Source of the DNA: a bacterium
GTDB taxonomy: Bacteria > UBP15 > UBA6099 > JAJRTR01
Length of the DNA: 44,660 bases
NCBI GenBank assembly: GCA_024278215.1
Contig: JAJRTR010000197.1
Coordinates: forward strand, 1 to 44,660
Direction of reading: 5' to 3'
Under the pieces are notes generated by a model. The model searched no databases, was not told the DNA's origin, and saw only the letters and a program-made list of their open reading frames with translations. Below, piece by piece: positions 20,332 to 35,862 of this stretch (position 1 is the stretch's first letter; each line of letters begins with the position of its first letter). The position numbers and the translations under genes were made by a program.

Positions 20332-20509
20332 GAGCCAATTGCAAAATTCTGATTCGGCGGCGGTCGTCTGCAATTGTCGACAGATGCGTTGTCGGCGCAA
20401 AATCTCCTCGACGTACTTTACAAGTTCGCCTGCGTGAATTTTACAACTCCGCCTTGCTTTTGAACAATTTAGTTCGACCTTGCTTCAAACATAATTTTAC
20501 AATTGGTTC
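20332..20509. mobile_element. 178-bp MITE, second full-length copy
   Basis: It is collinear with the reverse complement of 232..409 and has the same length, with scattered substitutions. Confidence 0.88.
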
Positions 20510-20571
20510 CAGGCAACAAGATTTTGACACGGCTGTTATGCTATAATCGTTTTGATAATAAGGAGACTGTT

Positions 20572-22499: not shown

Positions 22500-24290
22500 T
22501 TATTTATCGTTACAGGCGGGAAAAGTCAGAACGAAGGAAGTGCCTTCACCTTTTGTTGATTTGACATCTATTTTTCCATTATTGTTTTTCACAATGCGGA
22601 AGGTTATGGACAGTCCCAGCCCGGTGCCGGCCCTTTTTGTCGTGAAGAACGGGTCGAATATCCGTGACAGGTCTTCTTCGCTTATTCCAGGCCCTGTGTC
22701 ACGGATACGCAACACAACATTATCATTTACCGCATCGCAGGATATGGACAAAGTACCTTTGCCCTTCATTGCCTGCGCGGCATTCAGGGAAATATTCATG
22801 ACGGCCTGAATTATTTCCTTTCTGCTTCCGACAATAAACGCTTTGCTTGAGAAATCCGCAATATTAACATCGACATACTTCATTATTTTGTGAAACATAA
22901 GGATTCGCAAGGCTTCTTTTACTGCTTCTGCTACATCGACAACTTTCTTTTCAACACCGCCGGGACGCGAGAAGTCCAGGAGTTCCCTGATTGTCGAATC
23001 GATGAACCCGACTTCTTTATCAAGTTCAATGATGTAGTGGTCGAATTTTTCGGGCGGAGCGTTCCGCAGCAGTTGGAGATATCCGGATATGGCGGCGAGA
23101 GGATTCCCTATTTCATGGGCGACCCCGGCGGCGAGTTCACCAATGGCGGCGAGTTTTCCCGACTCGATAAGCTGCTCCTGGTTGAGCCTTATTTCCTCGT
23201 CGCGCCTCTCCAGCGCTTTTCCCATCCTGTTGAAGCTTTTCGCCAGTCTGCTGAATTCATCTTTTCCCGTTTCCGGGATTCTGTGCGCAAAATCACCGGT
23301 TTCGATACGGCTGACGCCTTCGGCCAGATCATCGAGCGGCTCGACGATTCTTCTTGACATCGAAGCGCTCGCGAGAACTGAAAACGCGAAGGCCAGCACG
23401 GCGATCAGTGCGATGGCGAGGAGACCGCTCTCCTGGATTTCGGAGATTCTCGATTTCGGATAGATCGTGATCAGGTAGGCGACATGCCTCTGTCCGCTTG
23501 TGATGGGTGTGCGGCCCACAAGATAGTCTTTATCAAGATACTCGCCGGGCGAAAGCTGCGCTTCATTTGTAATCTCGAAAGTTGCTGAAATAATGGTGCC
23601 GCGATATTCGACAGCGGTTTCCGTTCCTGTCAGAGATCGTATTTTCTCGACAAAACGTTCGTCGAGATAGTTGCCGATACGCACATAGCCCGAAGGCGCA
23701 GTCCTGGCTGAGGCAGTGTCGCTGCAAGCCTCGTCGATGTCTCTGTATCCGCATGTGCTTTCGTCGGAAAAAACAGGAGCCACAGCTACCGCGGCGATCC
23801 TGCCGGGAAAAACAGGTTCGATACCGGCCGCCGCTGTTTTGGTGCTTTCGGCATTCTGGAATGACGGATACAAAAAAAGAGGCTCGGTTTCCGCGAGTTC
23901 CGCGTCAATATCTTCATAATCGAACCTTGTCGCGTGACGCAGCACAACACCGTCTTTGCCCGCGATAGAAATAAAATCCGCTCCGAGCGAGTCGATCTGT
24001 TTTTTCAATTCCGCCTGTGTAATCTCTCTGCCGTCCTTACCCAGAGAAGTTTTAATAAAATAATCATTCGACATCAGCCTTGAGAGTAACGCGGCATCCA
24101 GAATGTTTTGCCTGATGATGTTGCGCGCAAGCAGGGAAGCACGTTCCATTTCGTTGCGTGCTTCGGATTCCAGGTATCTTGATGTGAAAACAAAAAAAGC
24201 GACGCCTGTAAAAATGACAACGCCAAGCACAACGGCGGCATGGGCCGACATGAGTTTGCCGAAAAGGGACGTTGTTCTATTATTCAACAT
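22500..24290 (-). CDS. Membrane sensor histidine kinase (TM-Cache-like-TM-HAMP-HisKA-HATPase)
   Basis: Two TM helices, a HAMP domain (DEFSRLAKSFNRM), AHEIGNPL, DTGPGI and GTGLGLSI. Confidence 0.92.
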   Translation of the reverse strand: MLNNRTTSLFGKLMSAHAAVVLGVVIFTGVAFFVFTSRYLESEARNEMERASLLARNIIRQNILDAALLSRLMSNDYFIKTSLGKDGREITQAELKKQIDSLGADFISIAGKDGVVLRHATRFDYEDIDAELAETEPLFLYPSFQNAESTKTAAAGIEPVFPGRIAAVAVAPVFSDESTCGYRDIDEACSDTASARTAPSGYVRIGNYLDERFVEKIRSLTGTETAVEYRGTIISATFEITNEAQLSPGEYLDKDYLVGRTPITSGQRHVAYLITIYPKSRISEIQESGLLAIALIAVLAFAFSVLASASMSRRIVEPLDDLAEGVSRIETGDFAHRIPETGKDEFSRLAKSFNRMGKALERRDEEIRLNQEQLIESGKLAAIGELAAGVAHEIGNPLAAISGYLQLLRNAPPEKFDHYIIELDKEVGFIDSTIRELLDFSRPGGVEKKVVDVAEAVKEALRILMFHKIMKYVDVNIADFSSKAFIVGSRKEIIQAVMNISLNAAQAMKGKGTLSISCDAVNDNVVLRIRDTGPGISEEDLSRIFDPFFTTKRAGTGLGLSITFRIVKNNNGKIDVKSTKGEGTSFVLTFPACNDK

Positions 24291-24888
24291 AATCGTGATA
24301 TAACCGGGCGAAGATGCCTGTTTCATTTAAATAAATCAGTATTTCAACGACTGCGGCCGACAATTCAGGGCCGCCCTGTTCAGAAACGCAAAGTGTTTTC
24401 CAGCCCTCCACGCCGGTGAAAAAATATTTTATCCTTCTGCCGCCCTCGCAGTCCTGTGTCTCTCCTGTAAGGAACATAACGTCGAATTTGTCGTGCCAGT
24501 CGCTATTCTTAGATTTGTTTACTTCGCCTGCCATTACGATATTTGTTTTAACTTCAAGAACGGAAGAAATCTCATTGGCGAGCGAGGGATTGAAACCGGC
24601 GGGCAACCCGAACCGGGGATCAGGATATTGGAAAGGCTTTTCCGTTGCGGGCAACGCTACCCTCAATACTCCGCGCGCGCGCACCTCTTTCAGCCTTCCG
24701 GCATCAGGTATCTGCGAAAGAACTCTGCGTGATATCCGGCCCATCACTTCCTTCTGGATTGTTTCCGGCGCATCGGATTGCGCTCCGGATGAGGATTTAT
24801 TGCCGGATATGTCGGCGCAACTCGCAATTATTGCAGAGATGCACACCGCGCACAACATAATCAATATATGTTTTCCATATCTATTCAT
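24280..24888 (-). CDS. Lipoprotein with a family-3 solute-binding-protein-like domain
   Basis: Lipobox IIASC; LKEVRARGVLRVA...PFQY...GFNPSLANEI...L.VK. Its ATG overlaps the TPR gene stop. Confidence 0.7.
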   Translation of the reverse strand: MNRYGKHILIMLCAVCISAIIASCADISGNKSSSGAQSDAPETIQKEVMGRISRRVLSQIPDAGRLKEVRARGVLRVALPATEKPFQYPDPRFGLPAGFNPSLANEISSVLEVKTNIVMAGEVNKSKNSDWHDKFDVMFLTGETQDCEGGRRIKYFFTGVEGWKTLCVSEQGGPELSAAVVEILIYLNETGIFARLYHDYVE

Positions 24889-26069
24889 TCCGATTTTAAT
24901 ATCCACAGAAATTTGGGGTTGTCCGAAAGCCAGCCGAAATCGGAGTCGTTCTTTAACCGTACAATCATCGGGCGGCCTCCCCACTCGACAGCCTTTCCCG
25001 CATACTCGACAGCTTCCGTGCCTTTCTTCATTCTGGAATATATCGCGGCTATTTCGTACCATGTTTCAGCAAGTGAAGGATCGATATCCACTGCTGTAAG
25101 GAAGATGTCCACTGCTTTCGAGTACTCAAAAGTTTTGCTGTAAAGCAATCCGAGTTGATGGTAGTATTCAGGGTTGCCGCTGTCGATATCGATTGCCTTC
25201 TTCAGTTGATGTTCGGCAGCCCCGTACTTCCGCGAAAGGAAATCCGTGAAGCCTGACCAGAAATATGCTCTTGGGTCGGACGGTGCAGTCTCGGCAACTG
25301 ATTTAAACTTTGCCTCAGCTTTACTAAGTTCTGTCTTTTCCAGGTAGATTCTGCCGATCAGGATGCTGGGTTCAATGTAATTCTCATCAGAACTCTCGGA
25401 TTCCCGTGCCAGGATGAGCGCCTTTTGCGTTTCGTTATTCTCATAAGCATAAAGTGCTTTCCAGTACTTCACATAAGCCTCATTATTGTCGGTACCGACG
25501 ATTGAAACATCATCCGGTTCCGGTAATTTCACATCAATTGCAGCGCTGATATTTCGTGCCAGTAATGTTTGCGCTTCAGCAATTGAGAATTTCTTTATAT
25601 TGAAGGAAATGTCATCAATAATTCCCGTATCCGGATTTATAAGTGTGCCGATGAAAGAAAAACCGGTTCTTGTCTGTTCGAGTCGACCTTCTATCAGAGC
25701 CGAAGCGCCCAGAAACTGCCTTAAAGCATCTTTAGTTTCAAATGATAGAGAAACCTTTTTTCCACGGTTCCATCTGTTGGCCAATCGCCGTAGCTGCTCG
25801 CGCGGCATTGCCCTGTATGAGCCAGTTCTGTTGATGAGCTTTATCGAGTAGTCTGTAAGAGCTAGCGCCGCCCACGGCTGATCTAAACCTGCTTCCGACA
25901 CATAATCGAAAACGACTATATCCACTCTCGCCCGCGCGGTTGCTGTCGACGCGAGAAAAACAGACAGCACAAAATATAGAAGTGATGTCACTTTACATAC
26001 GTGTACAATATTTGTGACGACATCTTTATGGATATTGCACTTTTTCATCAACGAAACCTTTGTTGACAT
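24885..26069 (-). CDS. Secreted tetratricopeptide-repeat protein with a TolB-N/CsgG-like N-terminal domain
   Basis: A signal-like hydrophobic segment and several TPRs (AYFWSG...AIDIDSGNPEYYHQLGLLY...AVDIDPSLAETWYEIA.IY). Confidence 0.78.
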   Translation of the reverse strand: MSTKVSLMKKCNIHKDVVTNIVHVCKVTSLLYFVLSVFLASTATARARVDIVVFDYVSEAGLDQPWAALALTDYSIKLINRTGSYRAMPREQLRRLANRWNRGKKVSLSFETKDALRQFLGASALIEGRLEQTRTGFSFIGTLINPDTGIIDDISFNIKKFSIAEAQTLLARNISAAIDVKLPEPDDVSIVGTDNNEAYVKYWKALYAYENNETQKALILARESESSDENYIEPSILIGRIYLEKTELSKAEAKFKSVAETAPSDPRAYFWSGFTDFLSRKYGAAEHQLKKAIDIDSGNPEYYHQLGLLYSKTFEYSKAVDIFLTAVDIDPSLAETWYEIAAIYSRMKKGTEAVEYAGKAVEWGGRPMIVRLKNDSDFGWLSDNPKFLWILKSE

Positions 26070-26283: not shown

Positions 26284-27267
26284 TCATTTACAGATATTGA
26301 TTATCTCATTCACCGGGGTTTCCTTTCCGGCTTGAATCCTGAGTTCGAAACAACTTGCGGAGGATGCGATGTTATCACAACGCAGCAAATACCTTTCGTA
26401 GTCAGCCTCGATCAGGGGCGTTCTGTGCAGGTTCAATAACTTCAGAACAGCTTTCTTTTTACTTAATGAAATAATACCATGTCGCGCTTGCATAATCGAA
26501 GGAAAAAATACAAAATCAACACAGGCGGCGACGCAGTCCGGCGGCGGCGACATGAAAAGCCCTTCGTGAAAGTAAGTAAAACCCTTAGCGAGCAGCCTGC
26601 CGCCGCATTTCTCCGAAAGGTCGGCAGCGTTAAGTAATTCCGAATTTCTTAATAGCATAGGTGTGTGTTTGTCGAAGCCGACGGCGGCGGAATCGTCCGA
26701 CATATACTCTGCATCGTTCTCGAGCATTGCCCTCATCAGAGTCGATTTCCCGCTCATGTTTTCACCGCAAAACATAATACCTTTGCCGTCGTATATCACG
26801 CTGGAAGCGTGAATGAACAATATGTTTTTTGATTTCATTACATGCCCGATAAAAGAAGTAATTGCAGAGAAAAACACTTCCGCCGGGTTGTCCGGAGGCA
26901 CGCCCGGTAGTTCGATCGTACACCTGTGTGTCTCCATATCGCACATCATAACAATATCACCCGTCGCCCCGCGAAGGGGTATGCAGATATTATCATCGCC
27001 GGGCAACGGCAACTCTTCATCGTCGGTTTCCAGAAATTCGAGAGAAAAAACACTTTCATTACTATTATCGTCCGCAGGCAGTATTCTATTGCCGTAATGC
27101 AGCTTAAGACAATGCTCGAGGAAATTGCCGCGGACGGAGCAGAAACGAAGAACAACGCCGAACAGATGGAGGTCGAAACTATTCCTGTCGCCGATGCGTG
27201 AATAAATGTCGTGGGTTGCAGTCTCTATCGTTCTGGTCCTATCGTGCAGTCTTGAGCCTGGCGGCAA
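26284..27267 (-). CDS. HPr kinase/phosphorylase-like P-loop kinase (RiPP/lasso-associated type)
   Basis: IHASSV..DGKGIMFCGENMSGKSTL (His plus Walker A) and YMSDD. The start is uncertain. Confidence 0.78.
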   Translation of the reverse strand: MPPGSRLHDRTRTIETATHDIYSRIGDRNSFDLHLFGVVLRFCSVRGNFLEHCLKLHYGNRILPADDNSNESVFSLEFLETDDEELPLPGDDNICIPLRGATGDIVMMCDMETHRCTIELPGVPPDNPAEVFFSAITSFIGHVMKSKNILFIHASSVIYDGKGIMFCGENMSGKSTLMRAMLENDAEYMSDDSAAVGFDKHTPMLLRNSELLNAADLSEKCGGRLLAKGFTYFHEGLFMSPPPDCVAACVDFVFFPSIMQARHGIISLSKKKAVLKLLNLHRTPLIEADYERYLLRCDNIASSASCFELRIQAGKETPVNEIINICK

Positions 27268-28753
27268 TCGAATTGAATCCCTTATACAGCGGCTTCATAA
27301 TACGGTGCTCGAGGGCGGGCGACACGAAAAAAAGAATCCTCGAACAAAGTGACGCAACGGCCCAGGCCAACTTGCGAAGTCCCATCTTCCAGCCGTCACC
27401 CTGTATCGCATGGCGCGTAGAAAGTGGAAACCTGCAAAGGTAATTTCTTGTTTTCGCCGAATAGTTGAAAAAATTTCTCTCAAGAAAAGGGTTCCTTGAT
27501 TGCAACCACCGGAAAAGCGGTCGGCCCGGCTTCTCGACAGCTTCCAGGTAGTCCTCCAGCCACCATTCTGTAAATCCGTATTCACGGTGATAGTCATTGT
27601 ACAGTTGTGTGCCGGGAAACGGTATCGGCACAAAAACTATAAAGGATGCTTTTTCCCGAAATTTATCCATGAAGTCGAGATTGTTTTGAAAATGCCTCGG
27701 GCCTTCCCAGGGCAGGCCGGTTATGAAATACCCGCTAACATTTATTCCCGCGTCAGAACACAGCCGTATCGCTTGCTCGTTCTGCTCGGAGCATATTCTT
27801 TTCCGCAACATTTTCAGAGTATCGTCGTTGGCGCTTTCCATGCCGATAAAGATATCCGTGCAGCCCGCGGATTTCATCAAGGCAAGTGTTTCTTCATCGA
27901 GATGATCGGTCCTGGCCATGCACTTCCAGTGAAACGGCCTCTTCCCGGCGAGCTTCGTCATTCTATCGCAGAGGCTGCGGACGAGTTCAATATTCTCAAG
28001 GAAAGATGAATCGATGAAATGCAGGTTTGCTATCGAGTGGTTGGTGACAGCATCTTCGATCTCGCTGAAAACACTTTCTTCCGATCTGTATCTCACGCCC
28101 CGGTTGAGATGTCTTTCAACGCAGAAAGTACATTTGCGGAAACAGCCCCTGCTGAGCAGTAAAATCAGCAGGCGATCGTCGGCATCGCCTGTCTCTGAAT
28201 AGAAACGATTCGACGGAGGTGGAAGATCGTCGATATCTTCAACATAAGACGCGCGCCCGATGTATCTCGAACCATCTTCGGAACGCCAGGCGATACCGCT
28301 CATTCCGGCAGGCGATTTCCCTTCACGCCAGCGCAGGATAAGTTCCTTGAATGTTTCCTCTCCGTCCCCGATCACGGCAGCGTCGAAACCGGCGTCGAGA
28401 ACCTCGCCGGGCAGCAGGGTGGCGTGCAATCCGCCGGCGACAAGCTTTGCTTCCGGCAGTGCGGAGCGTACCAGTTTAAGAAAATCATAGGCGTAGAGAA
28501 TATTCAGACTTGTATTCAGGGAAAAGCCAACAACATCCGGGCTTAGCTGCTTGATTCTACTGATCAAACGGCGTGCACCCGAGTCGAAATCAAGGCATGG
28601 TTCGTCCAGCAATTCCGTGCCGATGCCGGCTGCTCTGAGACTGGATATAACATAACCGGCACCAAGAGAATAGCTCAGACCTTTACCTGGATAAGGGGGG
28701 ATAATGATCAGGGTTTCTTGTTTGTCGGATTCCACTTTTTCGATAGCGGGCAT
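27239..28753 (-). CDS. Cobalamin-binding radical SAM enzyme (class B methyltransferase-like)
   Basis: An N-terminal B12-binding domain (DVVGFS, VAGGLHAT, GDGEETF), SRGCFRKCTFC, GMES, GYFITGLP.E and P.PGTQLY. Confidence 0.92.
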   Translation of the reverse strand: MPAIEKVESDKQETLIIIPPYPGKGLSYSLGAGYVISSLRAAGIGTELLDEPCLDFDSGARRLISRIKQLSPDVVGFSLNTSLNILYAYDFLKLVRSALPEAKLVAGGLHATLLPGEVLDAGFDAAVIGDGEETFKELILRWREGKSPAGMSGIAWRSEDGSRYIGRASYVEDIDDLPPPSNRFYSETGDADDRLLILLLSRGCFRKCTFCVERHLNRGVRYRSEESVFSEIEDAVTNHSIANLHFIDSSFLENIELVRSLCDRMTKLAGKRPFHWKCMARTDHLDEETLALMKSAGCTDIFIGMESANDDTLKMLRKRICSEQNEQAIRLCSDAGINVSGYFITGLPWEGPRHFQNNLDFMDKFREKASFIVFVPIPFPGTQLYNDYHREYGFTEWWLEDYLEAVEKPGRPLFRWLQSRNPFLERNFFNYSAKTRNYLCRFPLSTRHAIQGDGWKMGLRKLAWAVASLCSRILFFVSPALEHRIMKPLYKGFNSIAARLKTAR

Positions 28754-28792
28754 GTAATGATGATCCCGGGTCCATTTTTAAAACAAATACAA

Positions 28793-28813
28793 CAACACAA
28801 AACACTTGTGTTG
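28793..28813 (-). terminator. Stem-loop downstream of the precursor gene (terminator or RNA stabiliser)
   Basis: The minus strand has CAACACAA-GTGTT-TTGTGTTG (8-bp stem) followed by the T-rich TTGTATTTGTTTT. Confidence 0.45.
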
Positions 28814-28847
28814 CGGCAGCTGTTTGTAACAGGAAAGCGAAGCAGGC

Positions 28848-29009
28848 CTACTTATCGGCGTCCTTTGCCATAGCAGCCTTGCACGACGGCCCACTGTATA
28901 CGTCTTTAACAGTCCCGTATTTTGTCAGGGTCGGTTTGACAAACAATTTTTTGCCATTTTCAAAATGATCGGCACTACCTGTCTGCGAGCAGTTCTTTTT
29001 CTTTTCCAT
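28848..29009 (-). CDS. Putative RiPP precursor peptide, 53 aa
   Basis: MEKKKNCSQTGSADHFENGKKLFVKPTLTKYGTVKDVYSGPSCKAAMAKDADK. It has a strong AAGGAGGTG RBS before ATG 29009 and an RRE-binding motif (Y/F)xxPxLxxxG. Confidence 0.75.
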   Translation of the reverse strand: MEKKKNCSQTGSADHFENGKKLFVKPTLTKYGTVKDVYSGPSCKAAMAKDADK

Positions 29010-30051
29010 TCCGCACCTCCTTTTCCATGAAAGTGTTGACGATTCTGCAAACTTCGCGCGGCGCGGAGAAAATATTTCCGTGTTCATACAGACCCAGTCC
29101 CGGGCACGGCCTGCATTTCGGAAAATGGTTGCAGCCTGCGCATTCAAATTGTTTGACTTTCATATTACGTATTTCTTTCAGCGCGTTCGAGTTGCGCCAC
29201 AAATCACCGAAAGAGGATTCTCTTATATTTCCGGCCGGAATATCGACCAGCGAGCAGGGCAGCAAGTCTCCATGGCTTGTGATGTAACCGGTGGTTCGCC
29301 CCATTGTGCACCATGACTCGATCGTATTGTCAGGCAGATAATCTTCGGGATCGACTTTACCGAAATCTGCCGCGAAAGTTTCCCACGGCCGGGGCAATTC
29401 CCTGAAAACCGATTCTGGCAACCTGTATTTCAGTGGCGAATTGTCTCCATTTTCCCTTGGCAGAATTATCGAATAGAACTGGTGCCTGACCCCTAACTTC
29501 CCGCAGAGTGCTTCAATGGCGTCACACTCTGAATGATTTACCGTCATCAGGAGTGTGGAAGCTTCGGGATGCAAGCGGGCTTCCGCCAGTCTTTCAAGCG
29601 CACTTATTGTTTTTGCAAAGCTTCCCGGTGTCCGGGTGACTTTTTCGTGAATCCGCTTTTCAGCGCTGTAGAGACTAACGGCGACTGCCTTGATCTTTTC
29701 CGGTCGCTGCGAAAGCATGTCGATGATTCGGTCTGTCAGCAAAACTCCGTTTGTCTGGAGCGTTAGCGGAAAGTCCGAATCGAGCAATATCTCAAGGATC
29801 TCATATATTCTCGGATGAGTCAGGAACTCGCCACCGGTGAGATTCAGGTGAAAAACCCCTGCCTCTTTCATCTCCGGCAATATTTTCTTATAGTCTTCCG
29901 GTTGCAACTCGTTTTCGATATTTGTATTGCATTTGAGCACACAATGGACACAATTGAGATTGCAGCGTCTTGTGACTTCGATCTGGATGCGCACAGGACT
30001 GCTTTTTCGTGACAGGTATTTGAATAACTCTTCGCGTTTTTTTCTTATCAT
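28975..30051 (-). CDS. Radical SAM enzyme with a SPASM domain (peptide maturase, PqqE-like)
   Basis: RRCNLNCVHC, TGGEFL, QTNG; SPASM cysteines WCTMG...GDLLPC...CAGCNHFPKCRPCPG...C. Confidence 0.93.
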   Translation of the reverse strand: MIRKKREELFKYLSRKSSPVRIQIEVTRRCNLNCVHCVLKCNTNIENELQPEDYKKILPEMKEAGVFHLNLTGGEFLTHPRIYEILEILLDSDFPLTLQTNGVLLTDRIIDMLSQRPEKIKAVAVSLYSAEKRIHEKVTRTPGSFAKTISALERLAEARLHPEASTLLMTVNHSECDAIEALCGKLGVRHQFYSIILPRENGDNSPLKYRLPESVFRELPRPWETFAADFGKVDPEDYLPDNTIESWCTMGRTTGYITSHGDLLPCSLVDIPAGNIRESSFGDLWRNSNALKEIRNMKVKQFECAGCNHFPKCRPCPGLGLYEHGNIFSAPREVCRIVNTFMEKEVRNGKEKELLADR

Positions 30052-30341
30052 AAAGCGCGATCAACTTCAGTAATCAGATTTTCTGCACACAGATCGTCAA
30101 GCAATTCTTGCACCTGGCTCTCAACATCATGCGCACAACAGTCATAATCATTTTGAAGAACTTCGATTATATCCTCGATTACGCATATATCGCCAAGTAA
30201 TCGCCATATCTCGGTTCCTGTTTCATTCAGACTGTAGTATACCCCTGATTTAAGATTCAAAAGCACAGCCTCGCCGTTGATTATCCGTTCGACACAATCT
30301 TTGCTCCTGGTCCATCGTTTCTTTTTCGCATTAATCATCAT
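30048..30341 (-). CDS. PqqD-family peptide chaperone (RiPP recognition element)
   Basis: GEAVLLNLKSGVYYSLNETGTEIWRLL...I...L...YD....VE..V..LL.DL...LI. It has an ATGA overlap with the rSAM gene. Confidence 0.92.
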   Translation of the reverse strand: MMINAKKKRWTRSKDCVERIINGEAVLLNLKSGVYYSLNETGTEIWRLLGDICVIEDIIEVLQNDYDCCAHDVESQVQELLDDLCAENLITEVDRAL

Positions 30342-30385
30342 ATTATTGTGTAGCCGCCGGATATTTCAGTAAATACATTTCGCAC

Positions 30386-30435
30386 GAGCCAATTGCAAAA
30401 TGATATTCTGCTGTATCCGGCTGCAAGTGGTTCTC
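30386..30435. repeat. Truncated MITE terminus upstream of pqqD
   Basis: GAGCCAATTGCAAAATGATATTCTGCTG...GGCTGCAAGT. Confidence 0.65.
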
Positions 30436-30608
30436 CTTATATAATATTTTAAAATGTGGAAGTAAAAAAGTAAAGCTGTAAACGGGATGATAATAGTAAG
30501 TGTACTGTGCATCAGGTGATAATCGAGACATTTGAAGCCAGTTATTGCAGCACCTTAAATCAAGCCCAGACAGGTTGTAACGCAAGAGCAAGAAAAAAGA
30601 GTTTTTAA

Positions 30609-30637
30609 TTGCAAGGATTTTTGACATGCTGTATAAT
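30609..30637 (+). promoter_or_regulatory. Sigma70-type promoter for the SLBB-divIC-S1 genes
   Basis: TTGCAA-N17-TATAAT. Confidence 0.55.
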
Positions 30638-30713
30638 TTAAAATTAGTCGAAATACCCGACAGATAAAAAATACTTCGATTTTCATCTTTAACAGAAAAT
30701 GGAGGCACAAATA

Positions 30714-31661
30714 ATGAATAAGGCGTTTTTAAAAATCTTTTCAGCAACGCTGGTGTTTTTGTCTGCATTTGTGATGATTCACACTGACAATTCATTGTGC
30801 GTTGATAAAAGTAATTTCAAACTTGATACCGGCGATGAAATAATGGTACGAATTCCAGTCGAGCCCAAATTCAGCGGTAAATACGTAATTGACGAACAGG
30901 GACAGTTTTTCCTTCCGCTGATAGAGGGAATTGAATTGGGAGCATTTGTGGCAAAGGGCAAAACCATAAGTGAAATCGAAAAAATACTAAGTGACCGGCT
31001 TAGCGAGTACTTCATACAAACCGAAGCAACCGTATCACTGGTAAGCATGGGGATCAGACCCGGCAGATCGGTATCTGTGATAGGAGAAGTTTTCAGACCC
31101 GATAACTTTAACTTTTATGACGGATTCACCCTTGTTGACGCTATTATAAAATCTGCAAATGTCAAACCTAATGCCGACATAAGCAATATTGTGGTGCAAA
31201 GGAGAGGTTCTCCCCCGATCAATATAGACGCGAGAAATATTCTTAATGGAACAGACATGACAAACAACATTTTACTGAAGGCCGGCGACTATGTAATTGT
31301 GCCTGGTATGACATCGCACATGCAAATAAAAATAGTTGTTCTTGGAATGGTTAGTGATCCCGGAAGCTACACACTGCCGGAAGGTTCGCAGGTAATCGAC
31401 GCGATATCAGCCGCCCAGGGAACCATCGGAAGAGCGGGTATCGGAAAGTCGTACATCATCAGGTCCGTAAATGGAAGGCCAACGGTTATACACACAGATT
31501 TAAAAGCGTTGATACAGAGAGCCGATTTGAAGGAAAATGTGGAATTAATGGATGGCGATATCGTATTTGTGCCCGAATCATCAGGTTACGACATAATGAA
31601 CAAAGTGTCCGATATACTCAACCTTAATCTACTGAAAAACATCATAAAAGACGATTTTTGA
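30714..31661 (+). CDS. Polysaccharide export protein (Poly_export plus SLBB, Wza-like)
   Basis: L.TGDEI.V, IDEQGQ..LPLI....G...AKGKT, and two SLBB repeats (VSVIGEV.RP; VLGMV..PG.Y...L.DGDIVFVPES). It has a GGAGG RBS. Confidence 0.85.
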   Translation: MNKAFLKIFSATLVFLSAFVMIHTDNSLCVDKSNFKLDTGDEIMVRIPVEPKFSGKYVIDEQGQFFLPLIEGIELGAFVAKGKTISEIEKILSDRLSEYFIQTEATVSLVSMGIRPGRSVSVIGEVFRPDNFNFYDGFTLVDAIIKSANVKPNADISNIVVQRRGSPPINIDARNILNGTDMTNNILLKAGDYVIVPGMTSHMQIKIVVLGMVSDPGSYTLPEGSQVIDAISAAQGTIGRAGIGKSYIIRSVNGRPTVIHTDLKALIQRADLKENVELMDGDIVFVPESSGYDIMNKVSDILNLNLLKNIIKDDF

Positions 31662-31671
31662 ACAGGGACTA

Positions 31672-31998
31672 ATGGAGCCGGGAAAACGCGAACAGCATTA
31701 TTTGAGAAGACTGAACACTCGCGGTATATCGCGGGTCATCTATGTCGTTCTGTTCACATTCCTTGCCGTTTATTTTGGAAAACTTCATTACAGGAACTGG
31801 ATATATATGGAACACAGAGTTCGCGAAGCAAAACAGACATACAACGAGAAGTTGAACAGACTTGAAGAACTTAAAAAAGAAAAAAGGCGAATGAAAGACC
31901 CGGAGTATGTAGCGAAAATAGCACGAGAAGAACTTTACTTCATGAAACCAGGTGAAGTCAGAATAGAAGTTACGCCTGATCCGGTGACTGAAAAATAG
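31672..31998 (+). CDS. divIC: Septum formation initiator FtsB/DivIC family
   Basis: A single TM helix, a coiled coil and DPEYVAKIAREELYFMKPGE. Confidence 0.85.
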   Translation: MEPGKREQHYLRRLNTRGISRVIYVVLFTFLAVYFGKLHYRNWIYMEHRVREAKQTYNEKLNRLEELKKEKRRMKDPEYVAKIAREELYFMKPGEVRIEVTPDPVTEK

Positions 31999-32050
31999 CA
32001 GTACCGTTTGCCGGTAAACACAACCCCCTGACAGGGAGGCGTCTTTACAA

Positions 32051-32500
32051 ATGGACTATGAAGTTGGGGCACTGGTCGAGGGCACCGTGGTTGATATAGT
32101 GAAATTCGGGGCGTTCGTCAAGATCAGAGGCGGGAAAACGGGGCTTGTCCACATTTCCCAGATCAGCGACAAATTCGTGCGCGAAGTGTCGGATCATATT
32201 GACGTCGGAGCCAAAGTCTACGCCCGGGTAATTTCCATCGACGACCGAGGCAGAGTTCAATTGTCCATTAAAGATGTCTCTGAAGAAGAAATCGAAAAAC
32301 TGGAGTCCGAGAAGGAACAAAGAGACACGATCCGCAAACAGGTGTATCCCGAACATTCCGATACTTCCCACAGGCACAGGGAAGAAGATAATTTCGAGTC
32401 GAAATTCAAGCGATTCATGCGCCAGAGCGAAGACCGCCAGGTTGACATCAAGCGCAATCTCGAATCAAAACGTGGCGGCAGCAAACGTCGCAGAAAATAA
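32051..32500 (+). CDS. S1 RNA-binding domain protein (YabR-like)
   Basis: EVGALVEGTV..I..FGAFV.....TGLVHISQIS and the C-terminal FE.K..RFMRQSEDR..D.KRN.ESKRGG. It follows divIC as in Firmicutes. Confidence 0.9.
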   Translation: MDYEVGALVEGTVVDIVKFGAFVKIRGGKTGLVHISQISDKFVREVSDHIDVGAKVYARVISIDDRGRVQLSIKDVSEEEIEKLESEKEQRDTIRKQVYPEHSDTSHRHREEDNFESKFKRFMRQSEDRQVDIKRNLESKRGGSKRRRK

Positions 32501-32609
32501 TCATTCAGTAACTTCACCTCTACCTTCCGCTCGAAAGAAATATCAGATGCTTTTTCGTCGATTCATTCCGTCAGTCCTCCATGTCAGGCGAATCGAAGAT
32601 TCTCGTTTT

Positions 32610-32800
32610 CGATAACCATCTCCTCGGTTCCACTGTTCCCGGCTGGAACGATCGGACTGAGTGCTCCTGCTACGTTCTCAACTTAACGGATTTCTTTTTG
32701 AGAAATCAGGGATAGCGCTTTCCTCGCAATAACCCGACAAAGAGCATAGGATCGTTCAATCCGGGCGTTTCGGGTCGGCCCACGGGACGAGAAAGAACGT
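32610..32800. repeat. Composite repeat: two inverted arms around a GGATTTCT/AGAAATC hairpin
   Basis: The right arm CGTTCAATCCGGGCGTTTCGGGTCGG and the left arm (reverse complement AGCACTCAGTCCGATCGTTCCAGCCGG) resemble 44590..44620. The central hairpin is shared with 1754 and 20190. Confidence 0.55.
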
Positions 32801-33156
32801 CACAATACTGATTCGTGTGTAATTAGCCATTTTCAATACAGCCGTTGTTGTTAAAGTCAGCGAAAATGCACAAAAACGCTATTTGCGAGTTCGCTATTGT
32901 TGCTTATTGTCTGTTGACAAATGTCATCCGTGCCTTTTTATACACGAATCAATACTAAGAAAAAATATGCAATAAAACATACATTATTTCACAAGGTGAA
33001 AACATATCCGACAACCCGGTTGTGAGTTGACATTATTGATCGGGCAACATAAACTTAAGCACGGAAAATCAGTGACGCAACAGCATATTCATGAATAAAT
33101 GCTTAAGATAATCCGGTTACGTAAAATCTCATTGAAGAGGGTTGCGGGAACATAAT

Positions 33157-34239
33157 ATGGAGCTTGTTGAACTGCTGAAGGTATTCAGGAAACATCTGAT
33201 ATTGATATTCGGACTTTCGATATTTTCTATGGTATCTGCAATATGCGTTGTCTGGAATATCGAAAGGGAATATGCCGCAACTGCGAAGCTTATCGTGCGG
33301 AAATCAGATAATCTCAGATTGGGCCGTGCCTCCGTACTGATCGGACTCGACAGTTCCATGTCGGGGATTTCCGTCGAGTATGTAAGAGTCATCATCAGCT
33401 CCGACACGATCGCAAAAAAGGTGATAGAGTCGCTTGACCTGTTGAATGAACCTCTTTTTACCGACAAAAAACTCACTTACGAGAAAATGCTTAGAAAATT
33501 CCATAAAAAGACGGAGATAGATGACAAACAATATGGAACACTCGCTGTGAAATTTTACAGTACAGACCCGGAGTTCGCCGCGAAGGTCGCAAACGAGATA
33601 GCACAGCAGACGGTTGATTATATCCTGCAGGAGAAACTGGAGGATTCGGAATATCTGAGTTCAAAGGTAGTCGCCGCGAGGGCGGAACTCGAGGCTATCG
33701 AAGCAAAAACCCAGCAATATGAAGAAGAAAATAACATTGTGAAAATTAATAGCCAACTTGATCTGCATCTTTCCTCACTTACGCAATACCAGCGCCAGGT
33801 GGTTGAGAATAATGCAACAGTAAAGGGGTTGAAGAGAGTTCTCGAATCGACTACAAACCCGGTACTGGCGACACAGACGCAGCAGAAGATCGAGGAACTG
33901 ACTCAGCTTGGGAAAGTACTGCAATCAAAAATCGACGAGTTGGAAGCCCGCTTCAGTAGTATGCCCGAGCAGAAACGGGAGTACCAGGAAATGCTTAGGC
34001 AGAAGGCTGAAGCTGTGAAAAAACTCGTCTCTCTCGAAGCTATGCTCGATATGAACATGACCGAAGTCGACCGTTCTGCCGAAAACGTGAAAATTCTGGA
34101 CAGAGCCTATGCAACAGACCTGCCTGTGAGACCGAGAAAGATTCTTATCGTCATGCTTTGCACAGCAGCAGGCTTCTTTCTCGGTTTTTTCATTGCCGTT
34201 GCTGTCGAGGCTGTCAGAGCAGATGAAGAGGCATCCTGA
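33157..34239 (+). CDS. Polysaccharide co-polymerase / chain-length determinant (Wzz/GumC-like, no kinase domain)
   Basis: An N-terminal TM helix with Y.ATAKL, S.DPEFAAKVAN, a long coiled coil, and KILDRA...PVRPRK before the C-terminal TM. Confidence 0.85.
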   Translation: MELVELLKVFRKHLILIFGLSIFSMVSAICVVWNIEREYAATAKLIVRKSDNLRLGRASVLIGLDSSMSGISVEYVRVIISSDTIAKKVIESLDLLNEPLFTDKKLTYEKMLRKFHKKTEIDDKQYGTLAVKFYSTDPEFAAKVANEIAQQTVDYILQEKLEDSEYLSSKVVAARAELEAIEAKTQQYEEENNIVKINSQLDLHLSSLTQYQRQVVENNATVKGLKRVLESTTNPVLATQTQQKIEELTQLGKVLQSKIDELEARFSSMPEQKREYQEMLRQKAEAVKKLVSLEAMLDMNMTEVDRSAENVKILDRAYATDLPVRPRKILIVMLCTAAGFFLGFFIAVAVEAVRADEEAS

Positions 34240-34278
34240 CAGGTACAACTTGAATATTTCATTGAGGAAAAACGATAA

Positions 34279-35862
34279 ATGAATTGCATATCAAACAGAA
34301 GAATTGTTGTCTGTGTTGTTGGAATGCTTTTTACTTTGCTGATGCTTTCGATGTCGCCGAAACGCGCATATTCGGAATCGACGGAATATGCCAGGGCCGG
34401 GAGTGATTTATCTATTTACCAGGCAATGCCGGATATGCAATCCGGGAGAAGCGCCGCGGATCATGTCCCCATGAATATCGATTTCTACAACAGGATGATC
34501 AGCAGTATCGATCCTGACAGATATGTAGTTGATTCAGGAGATGTTTTCAGTGTCCTCACGTGGAAACCCGGCTTGAAGAGTAGTGAGATGCTTGTCACGG
34601 TCGATCATGGAGTTATCTTTCTCGAGATGATCGGCGAATTGACTGTCGGCGGGCTTACGCTGACCGATACAATCGCGAAGATAAAGGCTGCATATTTCGA
34701 GAAGTTCAAGCAGTTTAACGTGAGAGTGAAACTCAGCAGGATGAGAACTTATGAAGTGCTTGTCGCAGGCCAGGTGAAGTCTCCCGGCTACTACCAGCTG
34801 AACCCGCTGACAAGACTATCGACCATACTGGACATGGCGGGCGGTTTCAATGGGGTCGGGTCTATGAGGTCCATAACCGTTTATGACGATAACGGCGGCA
34901 GCAGGGTGTGCGACCTTACGCTTTTCGATGAAGAGGGCGACGCGGAGCAGAACCCGTATATCCTTGAAAACAGCAGGATCATCGTGCCGGTTGTTTACGG
35001 CAGAGTGATGGTGAAGGGCGGTTTTATAAAACCGGGCAATTACGAAATTGTGGACGGCGAAACGCTTTTTTCGCTCATAAAATATTTTAAAGGTCTGCTC
35101 CCCGGTGCCGACAAGTCGGAAATACAGTTGATACGGCATGTCGCGCAAGGAACTTCCGGACCCAGATTTGCCACATTTGTTTTCTCTATGGAAGACATCG
35201 CGGGAAAAATCGGCAAAGATTTCAACGTCGCGCCGGGAGATACTCTGGAAGCCATTGACAGTTCGGCAAATTATACTGTTTCGATTATGGGCGCTGTTAA
35301 AAATCCGGGGACGCACTCTTATGTCGACGGAATGCGCTTGTCCGACCTCATAAGGGCAGCAGGCGGGCTCCAGCTGAAAGCGGGCCGGGCGGGCGACAGC
35401 CCGGGCGTGGAAATGTCTTCAATAAGAAACGCCACACTCCGGAGAGTTTCTCCCGAGACAGGCGAGTCCACCGAGACTGTGATCGACTTGAATGCTCTGC
35501 TCATTTTCCATGACGGCACGCAGGATATCGAACTCAAGGCGGGCGATTACATCACTGTGCTTGTTGAAACACAGGTTGTTTATGTCGACGGCATGGTCCA
35601 GCACGGCGGGTTCTTTCCTTACGATCCCGATAAAAGCGTGAAGGATTACATCTACATGGCGGGAGGCCCGAAACAGGAATCGGATATCGGCAGATCGAAG
35701 TTGACACGAAACGGTGTAACAACGTATATCAGTTTGTCGGAAAATGTTTTGCCGGGCGACAGCATCAATGTGCCTCCGGACAAAAGTTACAACTTATCCA
35801 GATATCTCGGGTTCCTGTCAAACCTGTACATCGTGTTTCAGATAATAGGCAAAACAAATTAA
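34279..35862 (+). CDS. Multi-SLBB polysaccharide export protein (KpsD/OtnA-like)
   Basis: YVVDSGD, G.I....IG.L.V.GLTL, and repeated V.G.V..PG.Y....L...AGG modules. Confidence 0.85.
   Translation: MNCISNRRIVVCVVGMLFTLLMLSMSPKRAYSESTEYARAGSDLSIYQAMPDMQSGRSAADHVPMNIDFYNRMISSIDPDRYVVDSGDVFSVLTWKPGLKSSEMLVTVDHGVIFLEMIGELTVGGLTLTDTIAKIKAAYFEKFKQFNVRVKLSRMRTYEVLVAGQVKSPGYYQLNPLTRLSTILDMAGGFNGVGSMRSITVYDDNGGSRVCDLTLFDEEGDAEQNPYILENSRIIVPVVYGRVMVKGGFIKPGNYEIVDGETLFSLIKYFKGLLPGADKSEIQLIRHVAQGTSGPRFATFVFSMEDIAGKIGKDFNVAPGDTLEAIDSSANYTVSIMGAVKNPGTHSYVDGMRLSDLIRAAGGLQLKAGRAGDSPGVEMSSIRNATLRRVSPETGESTETVIDLNALLIFHDGTQDIELKAGDYITVLVETQVVYVDGMVQHGGFFPYDPDKSVKDYIYMAGGPKQESDIGRSKLTRNGVTTYISLSENVLPGDSINVPPDKSYNLSRYLGFLSNLYIVFQIIGKTN

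Follow-up and report, generated by a model that had tools for sequence, protein, structure and literature searches.

A conserved 53-residue peptide gene overlapping the 3' end of a radical-SAM gene suggests a probable cyclase-free RiPP pathway with a lasso-type leader

The window (the whole stretch of DNA that was analysed, 44,660 nt) contains a gene for a peptide of 53 aa plus stop at 28848..29009(-), identified by direct reading and by its conservation in orthologous loci. In the mechanical ORF list this frame is enclosed by a 99-aa ORF that starts with TTG (28848..29147(-)). The precursor itself starts at ATG 29009..29007, with a spacer of 4 nt separating this codon from a Shine-Dalgarno sequence, AAGGAGGTG (29014..29022(-)), that lies within the coding region of a radical SAM/SPASM maturase. 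Because AAGGAGGTG falls inside the radical-SAM ORF, whose stop codon occupies 28975..28977, the radical-SAM and precursor genes overlap by 35 nt. Translation from the ATG gives MEKKKNCSQTGSADHFENGKKLFVKPTLTKYGTVKDVYSGPSCKAAMAKDADK.

A locus search with the radical-SAM protein alone returned no relative, and the orthologues came from a genome search. We found the same small ORF 3' of the orthologous radical-SAM gene in all 10 orthologous loci, which belong to 10 other genomes of the same order; each copy has a start codon preceded by a GGAGG/GAGG-type site, and this start often touches the radical-SAM stop. The ORF is under strong purifying selection (mean pS 0.71 versus pN 0.13 over 25 codons, 11 loci, and 55 pairs), and each invariant residue is written with 2-6 synonymous codons across the 11 loci. 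Sequence comparison confirms that the 53-residue precursor gene is real and conserved, concealed in the tail of the radical-SAM gene. The first-pass annotation had picked out this peptide as buried in the 99-aa ORF, had placed its start at ATG 29009 behind a ribosome-binding site in the 3' end of the radical-SAM gene, and had advised searching beside homologous radical-SAM genes for further precursors; the orthologous loci bear it out on each count. The family of precursors with a GPSC core is limited to one uncultured order. Downstream of the peptide gene is a weak terminator-like hairpin (28792..28814(-), 10-bp stem, T-rich tail) with a fold z-score of -1.07. Terminator-like sites in the region are not above chance (6 seen versus 5.6 expected), and in minimum-free-energy folds inspected by eye a counterpart of the hairpin was not evident in most orthologues.

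We divide the peptide into a predicted leader (residues 1-39, 28893..29009(-)), assigned from its lasso-leader register and from weak but recurrent matches to lasso-precursor HMMs, and a predicted core, GPSCKAAMAKDADK (residues 40-53, 28851..28892(-)), in which G40, P41, S42, and C43 are invariant. With the boundary placed, by inference, at residues 39/40, F23 falls at -17, P26 at -14, L28 at -12, G32 at -8, Y38 at -2, and G40 at +1. A 15-sequence alignment shows M1, K21, P26, L28, Y31, G32, T33, K35, D36, V37, Y38, G40, P41, S42, and C43 to be invariant and D52 and K53 nearly so (orthologue L021 lacks the C-terminal ADK); position -17 is Tyr in 11/15 family members and Phe in 4/15. Two relatives deviate: the Ser of P0010 comes one residue sooner, and position -2 is Val in P0008. 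The lasso register proposed in the first-pass annotation is upheld by F/Y(-17), P(-14), L(-12), and Gly(+1) across the 15 sequences, and the FxxPxL motif, whose conservation in homologous clusters had been named as one of the points on which that proposal turned, is kept as F/YxxPxL. Tyr38 does stand at -2, as had been noted, although the Thr that it was said to replace is not truly invariant: the available portion of PMC10368454 describes phosphorylated lasso peptides with Ile or Val at this position. Two lasso-precursor models, NF033528 and NF033521, matched 13/15 family members weakly but consistently, in every case below the curated cut-off (best 21.4 versus 33 bits and 18 versus 19 bits), and a genome-wide scan with the NF033521 profile gave nothing at E <= 1, the window peptide included. 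When a strict leader motif was searched for in six frames of the whole genome, the window peptide was the sole small ORF among 3 matches. A looser regular expression gave 98 matches, among which inspection found no other recognisable leader, so that this search was uninformative.

The predicted core has Ser42 (28884-28886) as core Ser3 and Cys43 (28881-28883) as core Cys4. In the window peptide, Asp occupies core positions 11 and 13, of which position 13 is the conserved acidic residue; an acidic residue at core positions 7-9 is found in only 4/15 peptides (Glu9, all from one genus), and the window peptide has none. The earlier description of a non-lasso core, with Asp at 11 and 13 and not at 7-9, is sustained by this pattern and by the lack of a cyclase (see below). 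That description had listed one Cys, one Ser, and one Met as plausible modification sites. Ser42 and Cys43 proved invariant, but Met47 is not conserved, position 47 varying among M, L, I, and A. A second Cys of the window peptide, residue 7, is not conserved. Residues 29-39 (T-K-Y-G-T-V-K-D-V-Y-x) are almost invariant, which would be unusual for a mere leader and suggests that the modified region could begin earlier than residue 40.

Adjacent to the radical-SAM gene is a gene for a 97-aa PqqD-family RiPP recognition element (RRE) resembling lasso B1 proteins (30048..30341(-)). The protein matches Pfam PqqD with 59.2 bits (cut-off 23.4), and its top NCBIfam match is lasso_PqqD_Bac (NF033536; 60.7 bits, under the cut-off of 80). 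Against solved structures, a profile of 11 orthologues matched TbiB1 (5v1u, 2e-18) and PbaB1 (9x90, 2.4e-15) and also ranked TfuB1 (6jx3) and LppB (9x8z) ahead of true PqqD (2e-4); the B1 and LppB PDB codes are those identified in the portion of PMC13381572 available. By these profile matches, the adjacent PqqD protein is a predicted recognition element of the lasso B1 type. A second PqqD gene of this genome (G000:C115) sits in an ATP-grasp/decarboxylase cassette.

The radical SAM/SPASM maturase (358 aa, 28975..30051(-)) matches Pfam Radical_SAM and SPASM (the latter with 39.4 bits versus 21.5) and has no N-terminal RRE of its own. Across 12 sequences the CxxxCxxC cysteines (C30, C34, and C37) are invariant, as is a 7-Cys SPASM set (C248, C266, C304, C307, C313, C316, and C335). 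None of the NCBIfam equivalog cut-offs was reached by this protein; the NCBIfam matches that cover its full length are sactipeptide maturases (StsB and SkfB), and SkfB (6efn, 1.9e-16), which synthesises sactipeptide thioethers, is its nearest relative with a solved structure. Beyond the peptide gene is a second, B12-binding radical SAM enzyme (504 aa, 27239..28753(-)), assigned from Pfam B12-binding and Radical_SAM; no NCBIfam equivalog scored at its cut-off (best ApyD, 127 bits versus 750). This accessory gene is present in 3/11 loci (the window, L014, and L019, where it is cut by the contig end) and is an optional member of the cluster. A radical-SAM paralogue elsewhere in the genome (G000:C170, 36% identical) lies near neither a PqqD gene nor a peptide and was not considered further.

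The next gene encodes an HprK-like peptide kinase (327 aa, 26284..27267(-)), recognised by a conserved catalytic set, weak family matches, and the fold of its structure model. It is present in 9/10 orthologous loci; the exception, L019, is on a contig that stops short of where the gene would be. Ten orthologues all keep H153, G168, G173, K174, S175, D191, and D192, and the spacing of H153, G168, K174, S175, D191, and D192 equals that of H148, G163, K169, S170, D186, and D187 of BsfK, residues that the available portion of PMC10368454 reports to matter. Two more distant cassettes keep the H, both G, the K, and the first D. Family matches are weak and under cut-off (TIGR04355 and TIGR04352, E 1e-5), Hpr_kinase_C is matched by 6/10 orthologues, HprK/P structures appear at E 0.002-0.017, and the ScmC Pfam family turns up in clusters similar to the kinase. 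The structure model (pLDDT 83.7) predicts a PEPCK/HprK-type fold. Passages of PMC10368454 and PMC13381572 report that BsfK and LppK phosphorylate core Ser3 with assistance from the RRE, and Ser42 of the window peptide is invariant and lies at Pro+16, as in BsfA. With such a kinase in the cluster, Ser42 is, by analogy, probably the best-supported modification site.

A candidate leader peptidase is encoded away from the cluster. This 135-aa B2-type protein (G000:C171:11828-12232) matches NF033537 with 36.8 bits (cut-off 33), the 4 orthologues scanned score 35.7-42.8 bits, and C53 and H87 are invariant. The gene occurs in 10/13 genomes of the order, unlinked to the cluster in all 10 and with differing neighbours. 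It was not found in G001, the sole genome that also lacks the radical-SAM, kinase, and TPR orthologues, nor in G010 (73% complete) and G005 (83% complete), both of which have the module or its end; the co-absence in G001 alone is weak evidence of a connection, and related genomes are not independent. A profile of the family found no solved structure at E <= 0.1, and the structure model is poor (pLDDT 62.2), its best Foldseek match (transglutaminase 2, E 0.34) being not significant. The kinase and its bearing on Ser42, this unlinked peptidase, and the optional status of the B12 radical-SAM gene had all escaped the first-pass annotation.

Three further genes may be co-transcribed with the cluster. 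A TPR protein (394 aa, 24885..26069(-)), assigned from Pfam TPR families, follows the kinase gene at -20..+22 nt in 8/8 orthologous loci that reach it and after a gap of 214 nt in the window. A candidate SBP_bac_3-like lipoprotein (24280..25062(-)) has weak Pfam and NCBIfam matches and keeps its synteny and tight packing in 8/8 loci. By its domain matches, the last gene encodes a sensor histidine kinase (HAMP-HisKA-HATPase, 608 aa, 22500..24326(-)), which in orthologues recurrently overlaps the preceding gene by 14 nt. No exporter is present in the cluster. At the other end, a 150-aa ORF at 30343-30795 has no family match and no counterpart in 13 loci (L013-L025) and is probably not a gene.

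From this arrangement we infer a cyclase-free RiPP pathway, assembled from lasso leader-handling parts and a radical-SAM enzyme, of which the ORF would be the precursor (A) gene. That an RRE-dependent precursor is matured by the kinase and the radical-SAM enzyme without a lasso cyclase is, in our judgement, moderately probable as a whole, and its steps differ in strength. The PqqD protein likely binds F/Y23-x-x-P26-x-L28 and would present the peptide to each enzyme. By analogy with BsfA, the kinase may phosphorylate Ser42 (core Ser3, at Pro+16), a step whose chances we put at about even. Where present, the B12 radical-SAM enzyme could add a methyl group, which we rate a little below even. We give similar, slightly unfavourable chances to removal of the leader by a cut at residues 39/40, for which the unlinked B2-type peptidase, working with the PqqD protein, is a possible agent. 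More tentatively still, the radical-SAM/SPASM enzyme might modify the core via Cys43 and form a thioether there; by analogy with the sactipeptide synthases, its likeliest product would be a thioether from Cys43 to a C-terminal residue, for example Asp52 (Cys+9).

The most serious competing explanation accepts a genuine precursor but puts the modification in the K-Y-G-T-V-K-D-V-Y block and not in GPSC. As with PQQ, mycofactocin, or streptide, the SPASM enzyme would then join Tyr or Lys through a C-C or C-O bond; there would be no lasso-type cut at 39/40 and no role for the orphan B2, and the product could be intracellular and cofactor-like. Y31, G32, T33, K35, D36, V37, and Y38 are indeed invariant, PqqE is among the solved relatives of the radical-SAM enzyme, and its NCBIfam matches include the mycofactocin maturase (114.7 bits) and PqqE (70.5 bits); the cluster without an exporter and the unlinked B2 also agree with a product of this kind. 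These matches, however, score far under cut-off and lie chiefly in the radical-SAM core, and the kinase analogy indicates Ser42. The closest relative from beyond the lineage (L080, 31% identity) has the same PqqD-rSAM-peptide-kinase order, and its peptide bears on the same point: Gly at Pro+14 and Cys at Pro+17 are kept as in the window peptide, whereas the K-Y-G-T-V-K-D-V-Y block does not recur. We therefore regard modification within the block as unlikely and prefer a modified GPSC core.

The genes downstream of the kinase allow two further readings, of which the first would extend the preferred GPSC-core pathway. The product might be a phosphorylated, thioether-bridged 14-residue self-made signal, read out by the TPR protein, the binding protein, and the sensor kinase to control the adjacent exopolysaccharide export locus. 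We offer this as a long shot; if true, it would be a RiPP class of a new kind, one that comes with its own receptor. The second takes the peptide to be a small conserved non-RiPP protein, such as a regulator or scaffold for the TPR, binding-protein, and histidine-kinase genes, with the neighbouring enzymes acting on something else. Tight packing with the TPR, SBP-like, and sensor-kinase genes in 8/8 orthologous loci is what it would lead one to expect, but the RRE-type leader motif and translational coupling to the radical-SAM gene fit a substrate peptide, and the PqqD-rSAM-peptide-kinase order recurs with other cores, so that we consider a non-RiPP role very unlikely.

A true lasso peptide, served by a cyclase gene at another place in the genome, is more improbable again. 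To distinguish lasso cyclases from asparagine synthases, we compared scores on NF033535 (cut-off 525 bits) and TIGR01536 (cut-off 267). The leader and the kinase are indeed of lasso type, and the genome also encodes a B1-like RRE and a B2-like peptidase; three of its four PF00733 matches, none of them inside the window, are full-length genes of the Asn-synthase family. All three full-length homologues pass the asparagine-synthase equivalog (467-501 bits) but reach less than half the lasso-cyclase cut-off (210-259 bits), and no lasso cyclase was found among them. They also begin with MCGI, which we take to provide the glutaminase nucleophile. The scarcity of acidic residues at core 7-9 and the conserved acidic residue at 13 argue further against a lasso ring. 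Least probable of all, and in our view hardly worth entertaining, is a chance, untranslated ORF spanning the radical-SAM 3' end and the downstream spacer, since the pS/pN contrast, the synonymous codon usage of invariant residues, the Shine-Dalgarno-type site ahead of every start, and the presence of the ORF in every orthologous locus all speak against it.

Among the systems with which we compared the cluster are the phosphorylated lasso-peptide clusters of Bsf type (Bradymonas sediminis bsfA/B1/B2/K; PMC10368454). Both have YxxPxL at -17..-12, a residue other than Thr at -2, Gly at +1, a discrete B1-type RRE, a kinase with the same six catalytic residues and spacing, core Ser3 (the B1-assisted site of BsfK), and a B2-type cysteine peptidase in the genome. 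Unlike Bsf, the window cluster lacks a macrolactam cyclase, and no acidic residue is conserved at core 7-9; a radical-SAM/SPASM enzyme, sometimes with the B12 enzyme, stands in the cyclase's place, B2 is unlinked, and -2 is Tyr. The LPP clusters (lppAKBSDN; Popov et al., Nat Commun 2026, PMC13381572), as described in available parts of that paper, are likewise cyclase-free, with a lasso-type [Y/W]xxP leader, a discrete RRE, and an HprK-like kinase that acts on core Ser3, an action that in our case would follow by analogy. Both lie within polysaccharide loci, and the polysaccharide-export gene neighbourhood parallels those published for LPP and paeninodin clusters. By the same paper's account, LPPs occur solely in Bacillota and are equipped with a SipW-like signal peptidase, an NTP transferase, and an MsbA-type exporter, families that were unmatched in the 9 ORFs between 22500 and 30795 of the window. 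In contrast to the window cluster, LPPs have no radical-SAM enzyme, the terms "radical," "rSAM," and "SPASM" being absent from the text of PMC13381572.

The radical-SAM side has its own relatives. With the sactipeptide and ranthipeptide maturases (SkfB, AlbA, and StsB) the maturase shares a 7-Cys SPASM set, a predicted dependence on an RRE, and a Cys in the putative core; it differs in that the RRE is a separate lasso-B1-type protein and not an N-terminal fusion, that a single Cys is conserved, and that all family scores fall far under cut-off. The SynChlorMet (Scm) and GeoRSP cassettes of NCBIfam/TIGRFAMs, which are bioinformatic definitions only, likewise pair a PqqD chaperone with a radical-SAM/SPASM enzyme. 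Matches to ScmF (93.6 versus 400), ScmE (87.7 versus 400), ScmD (26.5 versus 100), and GeoRSP models amount to 26-99 bits against cut-offs of 100-400, and the window cluster is thus not a member. RRE-Finder (PMC7470986) records, in the portion available, about 300 lasso-type RREs adjoining rSAM genes and flags them as "false positives"; the co-occurrence of RRE and radical-SAM genes is the same, and neither a precursor nor a kinase or product is given for them in that portion. Given these pairs and the cyclase-free LPPs (PMC13381572), radical repurposing has precedent in the published passages, and the first-pass proposal that a lasso-like leader has been repurposed for radical chemistry is plausible on the sequence evidence.

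The literature searched contained no instance of a lasso leader combined with a radical-SAM enzyme and Ser3 phosphorylation, and queries for YxxPxL with radical SAM, the peptide motifs, SynChlorMet, and GeoRSP gave no relevant match there. A pathway of this type (lasso leader, radical SAM, and cyclase-free) appears not to have been characterised previously. Lasso peptides and the recently described LPPs illustrate that one leader/RRE system can feed differing chemistries, to which this cluster would add radical-SAM cross-linking together with Ser3 phosphorylation. If the proposal is right, the lasso kit (B1-type RRE, Ser3 kinase, and B2 in trans) would now feed a radical-SAM cross-linker. One may also ask if a lasso B2 peptidase, encoded at a separate locus, can act in a pathway that makes no lasso. 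The 53-aa peptide with its invariant Ser-Cys pair would be a testable substrate for learning what the widespread cassettes of PqqD, rSAM/SPASM, and HprK-like proteins do. One such cassette, the second in a sister genome (L068), has a core that likewise bears a Cys.

The 53-aa peptide (MEKKKNCSQTGSADHFENGKKLFVKPTLTKYGTVKDVYSGPSCKAAMAKDADK) is encoded at 28848..29009 (-), enclosed in the mechanical ORF list by a 99-aa TTG ORF (28848..29147, -). The first-pass annotation had started it at ATG 29009, behind a ribosome-binding site in the 3′ end of the radical-SAM gene, and re-reading the sequence confirmed the coordinates, the start, and the site: AAGGAGGTG at 29022..29014 precedes the ATG with a 4-nt spacer, and both lie inside the 3′ end of the 358-aa radical-SAM/SPASM ORF (28975..30051, -), which the peptide gene overlaps by 35 nt. 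We searched 41 genomes in six frames: of the 12 others belonging to the order, 10 have clear orthologues of this enzyme (42–53% identity, E 1e-95 to 1e-134), and no comparable gene turned up in 28 genomes of other lineages. The search that the annotation had proposed beside such homologues bore it out: all 10 orthologous loci carry, 3′ of the enzyme gene, a small ORF that shares the motif, each with a GGAGG/GAGG-type site before its start codon, and in several the start codon is contiguous with, or overlaps, the stop of the radical-SAM gene. Four more family members came from a 5.8-billion-protein collection. In the 15-sequence alignment, M1, K21, P26, L28, Y31, G32, T33, K35, D36, V37, Y38, G40, P41, S42, and C43 are invariant and T29, A45, D52, and K53 nearly so. 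Across 11 loci (a 25-codon ungapped block, 55 pairs), mean pS was 0.71 versus a pN of 0.13, and each invariant residue is written with 2–6 different codons. We take the ORF to be a translated gene. The family is small: of 14 matches at E ≤ 0.001 from a profile search over 1.84 billion representative proteins, we counted six as true members, and a pattern scan covering 185,579 species, each represented by a single genome, returned the same 10 loci and no others.

The peptide gene belongs to a minus-strand series in the order PqqD-family protein (30048-30341), radical-SAM/SPASM enzyme, peptide, B12-binding radical-SAM enzyme (27239-28753), HprK-like P-loop protein of 327 aa (26284-27267), TPR protein, SBP_bac_3-like protein, and sensor histidine kinase, with a divergent Wza-type polysaccharide-export gene upstream. 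The PqqD, radical-SAM/SPASM, and peptide genes occur in 10/10 orthologous loci and the HprK-like gene in 9/10, the tenth contig ending first. Because the B12 enzyme is encoded in only 3 of 11 loci (the window counted), it is accessory. The TPR, SBP-like, and histidine kinase genes are present in all eight orthologous loci long enough to show them, each within ~20 nt of the preceding gene (8/8); the kinase–TPR gap in the window is 214 nt.

With Gly40 as core position +1, the leader has Phe or Tyr at −17 (Tyr in 11/15), Pro at −14, and Leu at −12. The register claimed in the first-pass annotation is thus correct, and it is that of the YxxPxL motif of lasso leaders described in PMC10368454. The NCBIfam lasso models NF033528 and NF033521 match 13 of the 15 peptides, all below cut-off (best scores 21.4 versus 33 bits and 18 versus 19 bits, respectively). 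A profile of 11 orthologues of the PqqD protein ranked solved lasso B1 proteins first (TbiB1 2e-18, PbaB1 (9x90) 2.4e-15, TfuB1 1.8e-10), followed by LppB, the recognition protein of the linear polyphosphorylated peptide (LPP) pathway (9x8z, 2.9e-10), with genuine PqqD not before 2e-4; the structure codes were identified through section 35 of PMC13381572. When all six frames of the genome were scanned with a strict leader motif, three matches emerged, and this peptide was the only small ORF among them. The genome encodes only two PqqD-family proteins, and the second gene (~5709-5891 (-) of locus L040, G000:C115:35000-47000), upstream of 355-aa and 450-aa ORFs, is unrelated to this peptide. Four metagenome peptides (P0012, P0013, P0014, and P0016) carry a K-K-P-Y-x-K-P-x-L-type motif twice in tandem within one ORF, and in P0018 the leader is followed by a partial repeat resembling the family's G-T-V-x-D-V-[YF]-x-G..C block.

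Family searches match the 327-aa protein weakly: HprK-related kinases A and B match at E 1e-5, Hpr_kinase_C matches 6 of 10 orthologues, and HprK/P structures match at E 0.002–0.017, below bare P-loop matches. Its structural model (pLDDT 83.7) resembles PEP carboxykinases (E 5e-11, TM about 0.5), a fold class that we take to include HprK. What we regard as decisive for a putative kinase assignment, over these weak matches, is the catalytic residue set. H153, G168, G173, K174, S175, D191, and D192 are invariant, and the catalytic residues are spaced 15, 6, 1, 16, and 1 apart, identically to H148, G163, K169, S170, D186, and D187 of the lasso kinase BsfK, which matter in the mutagenesis reported in PMC10368454. 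BsfK phosphorylates core Ser3 with the assistance of a recognition protein, in a lasso pathway with Ile at −2 (PMC10368454); LppK does likewise, also assisted, in the cyclase-free synthesis of LPPs (PMC13381572, section 7). Core Ser3 is thus the target of both characterized kinases that act on such leaders. The first-pass annotation had listed one Cys, one Ser, and one Met as plausible modification sites and made no use of the kinase; with the Ser3 precedent, the serine probably becomes the best supported of the three. We predict that the kinase phosphorylates Ser42 because this invariant residue occupies core position 3 when numbered in the lasso register and lies 16 residues past the motif Pro, as the serine of BsfA does, and because BsfK and LppK act on Ser3. 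Reached by analogy, this is nevertheless the best-supported single prediction for the cluster.

In the radical-SAM/SPASM enzyme, CxxxCxxC and the full seven-Cys SPASM motif are invariant (12 sequences). The enzyme has no N-terminal recognition domain of its own, and no curated family reaches its cut-off. Its whole-length matches are the sactipeptide maturases StsB and SkfB, and among solved structures SkfB is the closest (1.9e-16). Outside the lineage, the nearest relative (31% identity) lies in a Victivallales MAG locus, L080, with the identical order of PqqD, radical-SAM enzyme, peptide, and kinase. In the L080 peptide, Tyr-x-x-Pro-x-Leu is retained, as are Gly at Pro+14 and Cys at Pro+17, the remaining core differing. 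One sister genome contains another, distinct cassette (L068, G005:C357, 1686-4515), which comprises a divergent small ORF followed by genes for an HprK-like kinase, a PqqD protein, and a radical-SAM/SPASM enzyme (31% identity to that in the window), and the divergent peptide has a Y-x-K-P leader and a core Cys. Given the kinship with SkfB and StsB and the Cys in the L080 and L068 cores, Cys43 is the likely target of the enzyme. By analogy, the most likely outcome would be a thioether joining Cys43 to the C-terminal tail, where Asp52 is found at Cys+9 in 14/15 peptides. In L080 (1-7739), a large gene 3′ of the kinase may encode a nucleotidyltransferase, and the set comes straight after an open frame of >1000 aa that continues past the end of the locus; in L068 the last element of the cassette is the start of a gene that is S24/S26-peptidase-like by eye. 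Neither a PqqD gene nor a small peptide accompanies a paralogous radical-SAM/SPASM gene in the window's genome (L023:3582-4643, G000:C170, +; 36% identity). Its neighbors are a convergent gene resembling, by motifs, a sigma-54-type response regulator and a histidine kinase gene, and it has counterparts (34–37% identity) in eight other genomes of the order.

We rejected the possibility that the product is a lasso peptide. The genome has four asparagine-synthase-family matches, three of them full-length; these three pass the asparagine-synthase equivalog (467–501 bits versus 267) and fail the lasso cyclase model (210–259 bits versus a 525-bit cut-off). All three begin with MCGI, which presumably reflects an intact glutaminase nucleophile. 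An acidic residue stands at core positions 7–9 in only 4/15 peptides, the conserved one being Asp52 at core position 13.

A B2-type leader peptidase candidate lies apart from the cluster. The genome's one Transglut_core3 gene (G000:C171:11828-12232; L039:5829-6236, +) encodes a stand-alone 135-aa protein with invariant Cys53 and His87 that passes the lasso B2 model NF033537 (36.8 versus 33 bits). It follows two genes that we take, from their N-terminal sequences, to be dnaA and dnaN, and a DUF721 gene, far from any recognition protein or cyclase gene; in sister genomes its neighbors vary, a DUF1648 membrane protein, PanE, and an amidohydrolase among them. The B2 match occurs in 10 of the 13 genomes of the order. 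Of the three without it, G001 (94% complete) is likewise missing orthologues of the radical-SAM enzyme, kinase, and TPR protein; G010 (73% complete) has the cluster module; and G005 (83% complete) probably has it, since a kinase gene cut by the contig end adjoins a TPR gene. Among the 12 genomes with the module, B2 is therefore found in 10, and it was not seen in the single genome without the module, a co-occurrence that is suggestive and amounts to at most one independent contrast. Lasso-type cleavage between residues 39 and 40, by B2 acting in trans with the cluster's PqqD protein, is plausible because the leader scan hit one small ORF and the other PqqD gene lies elsewhere, although we hold it tentatively, at somewhat less than even odds.

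The finding is real, and the first reading of a lasso-like leader repurposed for radical chemistry was essentially right. The family is best filed as a new, lineage-restricted one within an uncharacterized variant of lasso/LPP-type RiPP pathways in which, we infer, the radical-SAM/SPASM enzyme stands in place of the cyclase; product chemistry, cleavage site, and role of the peptide are likewise inferred. LPPs follow a cyclase-free pathway with a lasso-type leader, a recognition protein, and a Ser3 kinase, set in capsule loci (PMC13381572), but that pathway uses a SipW-like peptidase and no radical-SAM enzyme (the words occur 0 times in PMC13381572). RRE-Finder, which reported ~300 lasso-type discrete recognition proteins beside radical-SAM genes, classed these as false positives (PMC7470986). 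Literature searches with the peptide motifs, or with YxxPxL plus radical SAM, found no paper, and broader searches gave only reviews and lasso papers. Several traits are particular to the family: its core begins with an invariant Gly-Pro-Ser-Cys, Tyr occupies position −2, the B12 radical-SAM enzyme is optional, a B2-type peptidase is encoded at a separate genomic site, and the cluster has an operon-like connection to genes for TPR, binding, and sensor-kinase proteins near polysaccharide-export genes.

This setting recalls the published LPP and paeninodin clusters, also in capsule loci. Plus-strand envelope and polysaccharide genes flank the cluster (20503-22479 and 30699-35862), including those for a DUF5693 membrane protein (430 bits) and the Wza-like Poly_export/SLBB protein, with two more large ORFs at 33142-34239 and 34279-35862 (+). 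The PqqD gene and the divergent export gene are separated by a 150-aa ORF (30343-30795, -) that matched no family and lacks a counterpart in any of the 13 loci searched. This ORF is probably spurious, with the divergent promoter region likely occupying that stretch. In sister genome G008, ~2.6 kb of extra DNA (L014, 924-3521) separates the export gene from the PqqD gene.
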